This document shows positions 1,703 through 3,931 of a DNA stretch of 64,000 bases, piece by piece. Every line of letters starts with the position of its first letter. Within the stretch, counting starts at the first letter, position 1. The DNA is from an uncultured Candidatus Saccharibacteria bacterium (GTDB lineage Bacteria > Patescibacteriota > Minisyncoccia > UBA6257 > WO2-44-18): NCBI GenBank assembly GCA_964545345.1, contig CAZJFE010000001.1, positions 15,360-79,359 on the forward strand, given 5' to 3'. Made by a program: the position numbers and the translations under genes. The notes under the pieces were generated by a model. The model had not been told where the DNA came from. It saw nothing but the letters and a program-made list of their open reading frames with translations, and did not search any database.

Positions 1703-1737
1703 CCGCTTAGGTCCTTTCAGGACCGGGCGGTTTTTTA
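1703..1737 (+). terminator. Rho-independent terminator (also abuts the 3' end of the convergent TrmB-like gene)
   Basis: ccgcttaggtcc-tttc-aggaccgggcgg followed by ttttttat. Confidence 0.7.
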
Positions 1738-2514
1738 TCGTTCGGCTTTGTCGTAGAGCGTATAGAAGATACTGCGGAACATCTGTACTATATATTGGTC
1801 TTCTATCAGAACGACAAGAGGCGCCTTAGGCTGCCAGAGTACTACTTTATTAGCAAAGATATTGAACGAGGTTGTAAAAGGGCTAGCGCTTTTAAAAATT
1901 CTAAGCTCGCGCAATTCTTCTTTGGCCACCCCTTTGATCAAGTCAACTCCTTTGCCGGGTAAAACTAAACTTCGCACATTGATTTTCTTAGCGACGCGTC
2001 TTTTCGCCCACTCTCTTTGATGCTCCCAGGAAATGAAAGCCAAAATGTCGGAGGCGGAGCCAAAAAATTCTATCTGGTCTTTGGCTTCGTCTAAAATTTG
2101 TTGATATATCTTTAAAAATTGTTCTTTTCCTTCTAATACTCTTATTTTTGTCGGCGTGGCTCCTTGGCGGTAGAGAGCGAGTAGGTCGGGCATGGCTGAA
2201 GTCAGGTGTTGGCCCAAGTCCGACATAGCTTCCTGTTTTTGGCGCAGTTTTTCCAAAACTAGAGTCGGCGATTCCACGGTGAACGATCGGGAATATTTTT
2301 TATGCTCGCTAAATTTAGCTAGGCCGTGCTTTTCTAGCCCGGCAATCACCTTATAAACGTTCGGACGAGGCATGTTTAGGTGCTTGGCAAGTTCGGAGAT
2401 GGAACTCGGCCCAAGTAGTAGGGAAATGGTGTAGAGGTTTATTTCCAGTTCGCTAAGGCCGAGTTGGCGCAGAGAGTCGTATACATTTTCCTCTACTTGT
2501 TTTAGGTCGGCCAT
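1735..2514 (-). CDS. TrmB-family (sugar-responsive type) transcriptional regulator
   Basis: N-terminal wHTH LGLSELEINLYTISLLLGPSSISELAKHLNMPRPNVYKVIAGLEKHGL; ~259 aa with C-terminal effector-like domain typical of TrmB. Confidence 0.75.
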   Translation of the reverse strand: MADLKQVEENVYDSLRQLGLSELEINLYTISLLLGPSSISELAKHLNMPRPNVYKVIAGLEKHGLAKFSEHKKYSRSFTVESPTLVLEKLRQKQEAMSDLGQHLTSAMPDLLALYRQGATPTKIRVLEGKEQFLKIYQQILDEAKDQIEFFGSASDILAFISWEHQREWAKRRVAKKINVRSLVLPGKGVDLIKGVAKEELRELRIFKSASPFTTSFNIFANKVVLWQPKAPLVVLIEDQYIVQMFRSIFYTLYDKAER

Positions 2515-2568
2515 AGGCTTAAGTGTATATCTTATATATACACTATTAGTATATTAAGGTCAATAGCG

Positions 2569-2597
2569 TTGACAAATAGTTATATTTGGAGTATAAT
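2569..2597 (+). promoter_or_regulatory. Perfect consensus sigma70 promoter (TTGACA-17-TATAAT) driving the hammerhead/small-ORF transcription unit
   Basis: ttgaca 2569-2574, 17-nt spacer, tataat 2592-2597; divergent from the TrmB-like gene. Confidence 0.7.
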
Positions 2598-3010
2598 CCC
2601 CGCAAGAAGTTGAGGGTGGGTTTGGTGGAGTGAGTCATGGTGATGAAGTGGAGCTATGCGGATTCGGCCGGGGCTTTATCAAAAATACATAATTGCCCGA
2701 CGGTGTTCCGAGATCCCATAGCGCTGCAGCATTACCACGTGGAGTACGTTACAACGAACTTCATCATCATGACTCACCTCATCAAATCTTGATGAGGCAG
2801 CACCTTTGAATAGGGAGGCCTAAAATGTGGAACATGTAAAGGCGTAGAGAGCGACCAGAAGAGATGGATCCACAGACCTAAAGAAAAGGGACCGGCAATA
2901 AAAAGTCGGGGAGGTGGGGTAGTAGAGATTGCGAAACCCCACCTCCAGGTTGTTTAACAATTCAGGGTTGCAAGTTACCCCTACCGGACCCTCTTGGACC
3001 GGAAAACTTG

Positions 3011-3066
3011 CTCTGTCCTCGGGTGTGCACCCGGGCTGATGAGCCAGAAATGGCGAAACAGATCGT
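3011..3066 (+). ncRNA. Type III hammerhead ribozyme motif (copy 1)
   Basis: cugUC cleavage site (C3017), stem I hairpin cucgggugugcacccggg, CUGAUGA core 3036-3042, stem II g-cca-GAAA-ugg-c, GAAA 3055-3058, stem III cag/cug; all conserved core nucleotides present. Confidence 0.7.
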
Positions 3067-3099
3067 TCTTCAAACAAAATCAAATTAAGGAGGTAGAAT

Positions 3100-3222
3100 A
3101 TGTTCCTTTTCGGCTACTTCGTTGGCGGGATGGTGGGGTGGGTAGTGGCCAAGCACCACCAGAGGTGGGAGCGATGGTTCTGGCTTCGGGTGGCCCGCCT
3201 GGCTCGCGGGAAGGCTGACTGA
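3100..3222 (+). CDS. Small ORF (40 aa) encoding a hydrophobic TM segment with Arg/Trp-rich cationic tail, 35 nt downstream of hammerhead 1 and behind a strong SD (aaggagg)
   Basis: MFLFGYFVGGMVGWVVAKHHQRWERWFWLRVARLARGKAD; SD 3087-3093, ATG 3100; below the 60-aa cutoff of the ORF track. Confidence 0.4.
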   Translation: MFLFGYFVGGMVGWVVAKHHQRWERWFWLRVARLARGKAD

Positions 3223-3317
3223 TAGTACGCGCGGAGAATAACCGCGATAAAAAACCGTTGGCTACCAACGTTAGCGGGGACCCTGGCGAAAAAATAAACC
3301 AAGGCGCTACCGCAGTG

Positions 3318-3372
3318 GTCTGTCCTCGGATGTGTGTCCGGGCTGATGAGCCAGAAATGGCGAAACAAATTT
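3318..3372 (+). ncRNA. Type III hammerhead ribozyme motif (copy 2)
   Basis: Same core as copy 1 (cugUC, CUGAUGAG-cca-GAAA-ugg-CGAAAC); stem I cucgga-ugugug-uccggg carries a compensatory change (gga/ucc versus ggg/ccc in copy 1) preserving pairing. Confidence 0.65.
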
Positions 3373-3398
3373 CGAGATTGAGCAGAAGGAAGCTAGGA

Positions 3399-3494
3399 AT
3401 GAGTTCCTTAAAAACAGAGGCACGGGTGGGCGCAGCCACCTTGGTGTCTAAAGAGGATCGGCTAGAGCTTTCCGGTTACGGGCGCTCTAGCTAA
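3399..3494 (+). CDS. Small ORF (31 aa, hydrophilic) downstream of hammerhead 2 with an upstream gaaggaag SD; may be non-coding
   Basis: MSSLKTEARVGAATLVSKEDRLELSGYGRSS; same architecture as the first module (ribozyme, ~35 nt, SD, ATG). Confidence 0.2.
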   Translation: MSSLKTEARVGAATLVSKEDRLELSGYGRSS

Positions 3495-3697
3495 TCCGGG
3501 GGTTTCGCCCCTCCGCGTTCTGTTTGGTCGAGCTCGCGTTGCAACGCGAGCGGCCATGCAGACGTCTTAGGCCGGCCGCCTAGGACTGACGGAAACAGCG
3601 GACGTAGGCATATCAGTGCGCGCACATTGATATACCTACTGCTCCCTCCCATTAATTTTAGATGGGTGGAATGGGATCAATTGCGAGACTTACTAAA

Positions 3698-3735
3698 GGT
3701 AGGTGGAGCCAGCCACTCCACTTACCCCTTTTATT
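3698..3735 (+). terminator. Strong Rho-independent terminator ending the ribozyme-containing unit
   Basis: 11-bp stem ggtaggtggag / ctccacttacc (one G-U) then ccttttatt. Confidence 0.65.
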
Positions 3736-3931
3736 CAGTTCATAAAAGCCTAGCTTTTGTGGATTGATAGAGGGTCATTGAAAAAGGAGCTGTGCTCACC
3801 GAGCGCGCATACAAACCAAAAGCCGAATGGTTATGGTGTATGCCGTTGATGTGGGCAGTGCTTGCGGGCTCAACTCGCGCAGCTTCTTTCTTCAACCCCC
3901 TTTCAGGAGACCCCCTATGTTCTAGACGCGC

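Follow-up and report, generated by a model that had tools for sequence, protein, structure and literature searches.

In prophages, clustered hammerhead ribozymes flank genes, and cleavage in the course of in vitro transcription was shown for three tandem arrays (Perreault et al. 2011; PMC3088659); the role proposed for them is the processing of polycistronic transcripts (PMC3088659). In the haloviruses HF1 and HF2, a hammerhead is located 13 nucleotides (nt) upstream of the helicase start codon, and a mapped mRNA 5' end lies near the cleavage site (PMC3088659). According to a 2019 review, the function of bacterial and phage hammerheads in vivo is still unresolved (PMC6765202). Here, we describe a stretch of 64,000 nt from the genome of an uncultured groundwater bacterium of the candidate phyla radiation (CPR; contig CAZJFE010000001.1, positions 15,360 to 79,359; hereafter, the window), in which a single transcription unit contains two type III hammerheads in tandem, bounding a 40-codon open reading frame (ORF1). 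An earlier reading of the bare sequence (hereafter, the original prediction) left this locus without a known counterpart, but tandem hammerheads flanking small genes are an arrangement already described in prophages (PMC3088659). The window locus differs in its chromosomal host and in its setting, and the two ribozymes probably serve to release the ORF1 message from a longer, structured transcript.

Two Hammerhead Ribozymes in One Transcription Unit

The unit lies in the intergenic stretch 2515-3861, between a gene for a TrmB-like regulator and the CofD/YvcK gene, in which only tiny ORFs are found. Its principal features, in window positions, are the following (SD, Shine-Dalgarno sequence; MAG, metagenome-assembled genome).

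3009-3063, plus strand: hammerhead 1 (type III), predicted cleavage after C3017; RF00008 match of 41.3 bits, E 3.5e-7 (local search)
3316-3370, plus strand: hammerhead 2 (type III), predicted cleavage after C3324; RF00008 match of 28.9 bits, E 1e-3 (local search)
2569-2597, plus strand: sigma-70-type promoter, TTGACA-17-TATAAT, matching the consensus at 12 of 12 positions
3064-3099, plus strand: A-rich leader with a GUUCUUC element and the SD AAGGAGG (3087-3093), nearly identical in the orthologous contig L052
3100-3222, plus strand: ORF1, 40 amino acids, annotated as a hypothetical protein in the MAG
3399-3494, plus strand: ORF2, 31 amino acids, doubtful, with a weaker SD (AAGGAAG), overlapping two strong hairpins and without a homologue
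3698-3735, plus strand: intrinsic terminator with an 11-pair stem, a 7-nt loop and a T-run

The presence of two type III hammerheads within one promoter-to-terminator unit, each ahead of a ribosome-binding site, is well supported by the comparative evidence. The copies are direct 55-nt repeats, 89% identical and 307 nt apart from start to start. Each reads cuGUC^ (the caret marking the cut), a 6-bp stem I with a UGUGYR loop, CUGAUGA, G-CCA-GAAA-UGG-C and GAAAC-ag, and in both copies all positions of the catalytic core (C3-U4-G5-A6-N7-G8-A9, G12-A13-A14, A15.1-U16.1 and cleavage after H17) are at consensus. Alignments to the Rfam model and to R2, a model of the hammerhead family described below, yield three helices in both copies, with helix I (6 bp) and helix II (4 bp) capped by loops and helix III open; the latter comprises 5(+2) bp in hammerhead 1 and 3 bp before a mismatch in hammerhead 2. 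The loops, UGUGCA/UGUGUG in loop I and GAAA in loop II, match those that are strongly conserved throughout the family; in type III hammerheads, a tertiary contact between loops I and II makes cleavage fast at low Mg2+. The window contains two occurrences of the core pattern CTGATGAGNNNGAAANNNCGAAAC, compared with 0.00 expected from shuffled sequences, and R2 assigns 71.5 bits to hammerhead 1, which was part of its training set, and 67 bits to hammerhead 2. No third hammerhead was found in the 64-kb window, where the next best matches to the family model reach at most 9 bits. A degenerate third copy at repeats D3/D4 (UUGAUGAG at 2789 and GCGAAAC at 2931) was considered and rejected: no stem II can form there, and the first element belongs to a hairpin that L052 has retained.

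Most of what the original prediction had read from the sequence holds up. The perfect promoter and the terminator with its 11-bp stem are located as claimed; the anatomy of two complete type III cores, in the same orientation and 307 nt apart, is confirmed by the local Rfam search, the core pattern and the covariation of the family; the predicted cuts after C3017 and C3324 agree and would yield a 307-nt fragment; stem I indeed differs between the copies by a compensatory change from G-C to A-U; and the G+C content of the unit exceeds the window average (52.7% versus 46.2%). By contrast, the identical core of 47 nt that had been claimed shrinks to a longest identical run of 30 nt (3031-3060).

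The region is reproduced at 100% identity in two independent assemblies (ENA and Logan), so the tandem copies are not an assembly artefact. Palindromes resembling restriction sites at 3560-3590 had raised the suspicion of an engineered construct, which was dismissed: the palindromes are stems of hairpins, and natural orthologues as well as independent assemblies exist. No phage or plasmid record matched the unit in a BLAST search with its whole sequence. The promoter is shared with two relatives, with both hexamers and their spacing identical in L052 and with the spacing kept and the hexamers changed to TTGACG/TATACT in contig L055.

Conservation of the Hammerhead, the Leader and ORF1

The closest relative is represented by groundwater contigs L052-L054, whose TrmB is 83% identical to that of the window and which carry the same unit. 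As the original prediction had anticipated for a functional motif, L052 retains the CUGAUGA/GAAA core, and the changes in its stems are compensatory. In particular, stem II has changed from CCA/UGG to CUC/GAG, that is, by two compensatory double changes, and the U.G pair of stem I is replaced by U-A. The cleavage triplet is GUU, which still conforms to the permitted NUH. The contigs of this relative break off, as is usual where an assembler meets a repeat, L053 and L054 within the hammerhead itself and L052 within ORF1, so that hammerhead 2, ORF2 and the 3' domain lie beyond the reach of the comparison. A search by synteny, through CofD homologues, for the second hammerhead and the 3' domain of the orthologue did not recover them; the closest genomes (L056, L057 and L059) lack both TrmB and the unit.

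The leader between hammerhead 1 and ORF1 is also shared beyond this orthologue. The SD AAGGAGG (3087-3093) stands 6 nt before the ATG at 3100, and a downstream leader of the form AGAnnGUUCUUY, followed by an A-rich tract and AAGGAG, is common to hammerhead 1, L052, both hammerhead copies of contig L150 (8205-8160 and 7795-7760, minus strand) and contig L141 (about 612-650). The hammerhead, leader and SD together appear to make up a portable expression and processing module of ~90 nt, because they recur nearly unchanged in different organisms ahead of unrelated small ORFs. A motif resembling UYCWUU is present in about 32 of 108 hammerhead tails. UUCUUU is complementary to AAGGAG when G-U pairs are allowed and could act as an anti-SD. 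An extension of helix III by pairing of GUUCUUU with upstream A-runs was discarded, the upstream sequences not being conserved. The SD AAGGAG can further pair with UUCCUU at codons 2-3 of ORF1 (3087-3108), which in the minimum free energy (MFE) fold of the 307-nt fragment places the AUG in the loop of a 6-bp hairpin; the corresponding pairing in L052 is weaker but still possible.

Within the 27 codons of ORF1 available in L052, 12 differ from the window, 7 of them synonymously and 5 conservatively, with 3, 2 and 8 changes at the first, second and third codon positions, respectively. ORF1 is a real gene because these differences are mostly synonymous or conservative and concentrated at third positions. 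The encoded product, a putative membrane peptide, consists of a hydrophobic N-terminal segment of 17 residues (mean hydropathy +1.8) and a basic tail (+5) rich in Trp and Arg. Searches of 5.8 billion proteins (word-indexed) and of 1.84 billion representatives (exhaustive HMMER) returned only ORF1 itself, and tblastn over all fetched loci gave L052 as the sole match; neither ORF1 nor ORF2 matches Pfam or PHROGs. A hairpin resembling a terminator, with a T-run, lies on the minus strand just 3' of the ORF1 stop codon (3256-3270), and a matching minus-strand promoter was not found. The part of the original prediction that placed an SD and a small ORF behind each ribozyme is therefore to be divided: AAGGAGG and ORF1 stand, with a coding pattern in the orthologue, but ORF2, which has the weak AAGGAAG, sits inside hairpins and lacks a homologue, is not supported.

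A Family of Hammerheads Upstream of Small ORFs

Scanning IMG/VR with the core pattern alone yielded 48 loci, and a scan of metagenomes added 52 more. Although this pattern demanded neither stem I, nor stem III, nor complementarity in stem II, nearly all 48 IMG/VR loci display the full hammerhead architecture. Across the 86 distinct sequences of the family, helices I-III are paired in 94% of cells, compared with 33-43% in controls in which the helix partners were slid by 1-3 columns, and the covariation score is 0.72 versus about 0.10 in the same controls.

In these phage and metagenome contigs, an ORF of at least 30 codons beginning with ATG starts 10-70 nt downstream of 73 of the 101 hammerheads, at a median distance of 29 nt, whereas the same criterion is satisfied at 38% of random positions on the same strand (Fisher p 2e-11). 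In the window, the corresponding distance from the end of hammerhead 1 to the ATG at 3100 is 36 nt. At least two hammerheads, spaced by 301-2452 nt, are present on 24 of 75 hammerhead-bearing strands; for instance, in phage contig L007 the succession of hammerhead, SD and ORF is repeated at least three times consecutively. Contig L150, which comes from Hainich groundwater, is chromosomal and CPR-like and encodes LysRS, SerRS and alanine racemase. It contains a cassette on its minus strand (8570-7440) in the order promoter, ORF57, hammerhead, ORF88, hammerhead, ORF97 and terminator, between lysyl-tRNA synthetase and other housekeeping genes. After this cassette, L150 has a second promoter and an internally duplicated ORF of 121 amino acids, and all these proteins are without annotation. 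Over 49 nt, hammerhead 2 of the window shares 98% identity with hammerheads of L150 and L141, which occupy clean inter-cistronic positions in other organisms. In ~0.49 Mb of CPR loci around TrmB or CofD homologues, just two hammerheads were detected, in L052 and in L084, a Zambryskibacteria MAG with the arrangement ORF87, hammerhead and ORF163, and both are found in the cargo divergent from TrmB. The small proteins of related cassettes are unrelated and mostly hydrophilic, and their ORFs have no match in Pfam or PHROGs.

Structured RNA Domains Flanking the Ribozymes

Compared with shuffled sequences, the regions on both sides of the ribozyme-bounded segment are strongly folded (z-scores of -8.8 for 2604-3009 and -6.5 for 3325-3740). 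The inter-ribozyme segment has a z-score of only -0.7, and such weak predicted structure is as expected for an mRNA. The flanks can be divided as follows.

2617-2790, plus strand: conserved structured 5' RNA domain (~175 nt), with a closing helix of ~31 bp, an inner three-way region and an invariant A/U-rich apical loop, CUUUAUCAAAAAUA
2813-3008, plus strand: variable linker with local hairpins (e.g., 2910-2946, inverted repeat I8), not alignable to L052
3418-3690, plus strand: strongly structured 3' domain of about seven consecutive hairpins (z -6.5), without an Rfam match

Counterparts of the 5' domain are located at 444-618 of L052 and 5739-5906 of L055 (both minus strand; the TrmB of L055 is 62% identical). 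The 5' hairpin domain of L052 is about 90% identical to that of the window, and 11 of the 58 predicted pairs show compensatory changes across the three sequences. The domain is non-coding because a 1-nt indel in L052 breaks the overlapping 51-codon ORF at 2637-2792. With the covariance model R1, the domain was recognized in the window, L052-54 and L055 alone; the model found it neither in 61 other TrmB loci nor in the hammerhead-bearing metagenome contigs, and a pattern scan of IMG/VR followed by R1 likewise gave no match. Searching 2400-3900 against Rfam release 15 at E values up to 10 gave nothing credible besides the hammerheads, nor did searches of L049 and L055. The identification of the 5' domain as 6S RNA or another known RNA was rejected in view of the missing Rfam match and of the missing two-sided central bubble. 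Following the 5' domain, about 200 nt cannot be aligned to L052, which has about 250 nt at the position of the variable linker. Neither the linker nor the 3' domain is more similar than shuffled controls to the regions upstream of TrmB in L055 and L049.

L055 retains the promoter and the 5' domain but has neither hammerhead nor ORF1. Because the domain thus occurs without the module, the hammerhead-ORF module was apparently inserted later, into a non-coding RNA gene that already existed.

Proposed Processing of the Transcript and Alternative Explanations

Sequence comparison demonstrates the motifs and shows that they are conserved and covary; it also establishes that ORF1 is coding and that, across the family, such hammerheads are placed just upstream of start codons. 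On this basis, we consider it probable that the two hammerheads cut a transcript of ~1.13 kb, freeing the ORF1 message and acting as insulators or processing sites. The strong promoter, which is probably co-regulated with trmB through the adjoining operator, would give rise to the ~1.13-kb primary transcript, in which the hammerheads would cut co-transcriptionally after C3017 and C3324. Three products would result in the cell. The upstream one would be a structured 5' RNA of ~414 nt with the conserved hairpin domain, which may have a function of its own. The middle one (3018-3324) would be a monocistronic mRNA of 307 nt with a 5'-OH, the compactly folded body of hammerhead 1, the unstructured A-rich leader, the strong SD and the 40-codon ORF1; two small hairpins would immediately precede its 3' end, a 2',3'-cyclic phosphate. 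The downstream one would be a structured 3' RNA of ~410 nt terminating at the terminator. A type III hammerhead leaves nearly the whole ribozyme body on the product downstream of the cut. The hammerheads would act as natural insulators or processing sites because cleavage would uncouple the translation and stability of the ORF1 message from the long structured flanks. Insulation and stabilization would follow the same logic as in engineered hammerhead insulators and as in model bacteria, where RNA decay depends on the 5' end.

Several observations weigh against this proposal. Neither copy reaches the RF00008 gathering threshold of 48.5 bits; the original prediction had regarded a covariance-model hit above threshold as indispensable, and although the model matches both copies end to end, the scores formally fall on the wrong side of that line. 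Nine hammerheads in L007, L150, L141 and L143 also score below the cut-off, at 32-47 bits with RF00008. The sub-threshold scores are not evidence against hammerheads because the cut-off excludes the whole compact subfamily, and the demand for a hit above it was too strict because clear relatives within that subfamily likewise fall short. Helix III of hammerhead 2 is interrupted by a mismatch after just 3 bp, and the hammerhead of L052 has a GUU triplet and has lost one pair of helix III to a mismatch. A predicted 10-bp pairing between 3314-3323 and 3058-3067 could compete with the folding of hammerhead 2. The notion that each ribozyme serves an ORF may hold for hammerhead 1 only, because ORF2 is unsupported, and ORF1 itself is, to judge from the searches described above, an orphan. 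The whole unit is found in just two close lineages, and the effect on insulation and stability is one that we infer for CPR by analogy with model bacteria.

The same 10-bp pairing bears on an alternative, raised in the original prediction and geometrically feasible, that we regard as unlikely: the 307-nt segment would be closed into an exonuclease-resistant circular mRNA for the 40-amino-acid peptide, or into a retrozyme-like circle, either by reversal of the hammerhead reaction or through a ligase of the RtcB type. When two hammerheads have the same polarity, the fragment between them acquires both a 5'-OH and a 2',3'-cyclic phosphate, and hammerhead self-ligation requires no ligase. The 3' end of the fragment (3314-3323) can pair over 10 contiguous bp with 3058-3067, the 3' strand of helix III of hammerhead 1, rebuilding a hammerhead across the junction; this helix exceeds the cis helices III (5 and 3 bp), is the longest among 37 tandem pairs and is partly present in the MFE fold of 3018-3324. 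Across the family, such 'circular' helices average 4.4 bp, compared with 3.5 bp for random pairs. The helix was noticed post hoc, though; 3 of its 10 pairs are G-U, it partly reflects the duplication of the copies, and the corresponding helix in L150 is no better than the cis helices. It might equally inhibit the folding of hammerhead 2 or form a protective panhandle. Moreover, no RtcB, reverse transcriptase or extra hammerhead copies are encoded in the 64-kb window, and Perreault et al., who looked for circles or spliced RNAs arising from clustered bacterial hammerheads, detected none (PMC3088659). The predicted back-splice junction is CAGTGGTCTGTC|CTCGGGTGTGCACCC, with CAGTGGTCTGTCCTCGGGTGTGCACCCGGG as the diagnostic 30-mer, which joins the 5' flank of hammerhead 2 to stem I of hammerhead 1 and is absent from both linear hammerheads. 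A more elaborate version, in which the segment closed through the 10-bp helix would be a circular, SD-bearing mRNA for a membrane peptide, carried by a cassette that moves between CPR genomes and phages, strikes us as improbable. If the circular interpretation were true, this would be the first natural ribozyme-made circular mRNA in bacteria.

Two further explanations, each of which we would give only a slim chance, concern the peptide and the activity of the ribozymes. In one, ORF1 would be a small membrane-damaging peptide of a toxin-type module, its translation held in check by the structured flanks and by local pairing of the SD, and ribozyme cleavage would activate or inactivate the message. 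ORF1 is small, and its hydrophobic N terminus of 17 residues and basic (+5), Trp-rich tail give it the overall build of type I toxins and of membrane peptides of phages; in addition, the SD AAGGAG can pair both with UUCCUU at codons 2-3 and with the upstream UUCUUC, and the unit occupies a variable slot under a dedicated regulator. Against this, a crude consensus scan of the unit found neither a minus-strand promoter nor an antitoxin RNA, the hairpin at 3256-3270 lies outside ORF1, ORF1 resembles no known toxin and no PHROG or Pfam family, and the proteins of the related cassettes are unrelated and mostly hydrophilic. The other explanation is that the hammerheads are inactive or irrelevant remnants of a cassette that came from a phage and recombined into a pre-existing non-coding RNA gene, with the transcript functioning uncut. 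The insertion indicated by L055, the weak helix III of hammerhead 2 and the helix III mismatch in the L052 hammerhead would fit such a relic, but the core is intact in three copies (hammerheads 1 and 2 and L052), the stem changes are compensatory rather than random, and hammerhead 2 is 98% identical to the clean inter-cistronic copies in other organisms. Release of the ORF1 message by two cuts remains the reading that we favor as probable.

Regulator and Genomic Neighborhood

Upstream of the unit, the following features are found on the other side of the promoter (HTH, helix-turn-helix).

1735-2514, minus strand: gene for a TrmB-like HTH regulator (Pfam PF01978, E 1.7e-12), divergent from the unit
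2524-2542, no strand: inverted repeat TGTATA-N7-TATACA between the divergent promoters, a probable TrmB operator to which binding is inferred

The TrmB-like protein is a 100% match to a protein of 'Parcubacteria group bacterium Gr01-1014_19'. The operator-like inverted repeat is conserved in L052, L055 and L049, and most of ~50 CPR TrmB loci share TGTATA-N7-TATACA beside the trmB start, a strong divergent promoter ~90 nt away and a highly variable cargo. This looks like a conserved cassette of regulator, operator and promoter with exchangeable cargo. Among the cargo types in loci L060-L120 are a dehydrogenase, a decarboxylase, a histidine phosphatase, receiver-like proteins and many hypothetical proteins of 60-120 amino acids. 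The predicted -35 hexamer of the trmB promoter, TTGTCA (minus strand, 2575-2570), overlaps the -35 TTGACA of the unit almost completely (2569-2575), and the divergent promoters may compete for RNA polymerase because of this overlap. In the TrmB-divergent region of L049, which has no hammerheads, an element of ~70 nt, CCCACCTTTCTCCAGCTCATCACAATTTCGTGGTGATCTGGAATCGAGGTTCTTTTGAAAATTAGGAGG, precedes each small ORF (minus strand, about 5120-5052, 3905-3835 and 3710-3640). It contains GTTCTTTTGAAAA, which resembles the post-hammerhead leader, and has no Rfam match; it may be a different processing or translation element.

In the closest genomes of the same backbone (L056, L057 and L059), a different small gene is found between UPF0102 and CofD, in place of TrmB and the unit. 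TrmB and its divergent unit thus occupy a variable slot, because relatives with the same backbone carry a different gene there, and small insertions are concentrated in the NifU-UPF0102-CofD-PLD neighborhood, a hotspot for them. Within this neighborhood, close relatives possess LAGLIDADG and GIY-YIG endonuclease ORFs as free-standing genes (L056, 1349-1792 and 3726-3989; L059, 5882-6391), which are missing from the window.

The rest of the window is ordinary chromosome, encoding NifU, UPF0102, CofD/YvcK, PLD, RecA, FtsK, PGM, ClpB, SHMT and a large glycan-synthesis cluster. No phage genes (integrase or structural genes) were identified within the 64 kb. The glycan cluster (24830-58062) comprises several GT4 glycosyltransferases, two genes resembling CDP-glycerol glycerophosphotransferases, sugar epimerases/dehydratases, a DegT aminotransferase, a C-methyltransferase and two tandem YfhO-like membrane proteins; such a cluster is nothing unusual on a CPR chromosome and is unlinked to the hammerheads.

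Comparison with Known Hammerhead Systems

RiboJ and its relatives are engineered insulators derived from the sTRSV type III hammerhead, in which the ribozyme is placed directly upstream of the ribosome-binding site. Once the RNA has been cut, the mRNA begins with a 5'-OH and the retained ribozyme body, and the sequence upstream has lost its influence on translation; the same outcome is predicted for the window locus. Whereas RiboJ is synthetic and single and is followed by a designed hairpin, the window hammerheads are natural and paired and are followed by a conserved GUUCUUY/A-rich leader. With the viroids of Avsunviroidae, virusoids and retrozymes, the window hammerheads share very similar loops and stems (loop I UGUGY and stem II closed by GAAA), and, as in hammerhead-bounded circular RNAs, a unit of a few hundred nt is enclosed by two sites of equal polarity and has ends that helix III could join (PMC6765202). 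Unlike viroid and retrozyme RNAs, the window locus gives no sign of RNA replication, multimers, reverse transcription or multiple copies, and the bounded unit contains an SD and an ORF. The HF1/HF2 hammerhead resembles that of the window in its position immediately before a start codon but belongs to an archaeal virus, has a variant core and a high Mg2+ requirement and is present in a single copy.

The closest counterparts are the prophage clusters, in which, as here, several hammerheads of the same orientation and with a canonical core are located between small genes of one transcript, their proposed role being to cut it into single-gene mRNAs (PMC3088659). The same compact type III form is abundant in IMG/VR contigs, and clustered type III hammerheads flanking small genes are already known. 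In the searchable literature, we found no report linking hammerheads with CPR/Patescibacteria. The unit combines a single promoter and a single terminator with two ribozymes, a verified gene of 40 codons and a regulator that is likely dedicated to it, and it offers a very compact natural test case for hammerhead function. Unlike the prophage clusters, it has no phage genes within 64 kb, resides on a CPR (Parcubacteria) chromosome as a stand-alone cassette opposite a TrmB-like gene, and places its ribozymes between two long structured non-coding domains, where they bound a single 40-codon ORF (PMC3088659 for the prophage clusters). What is new, then, is the CPR chromosomal host, the place of the unit as cargo of a TrmB-type cassette and its apparent insertion into a conserved structured RNA, which together extend clustered hammerheads to CPR/Patescibacteria chromosomes.

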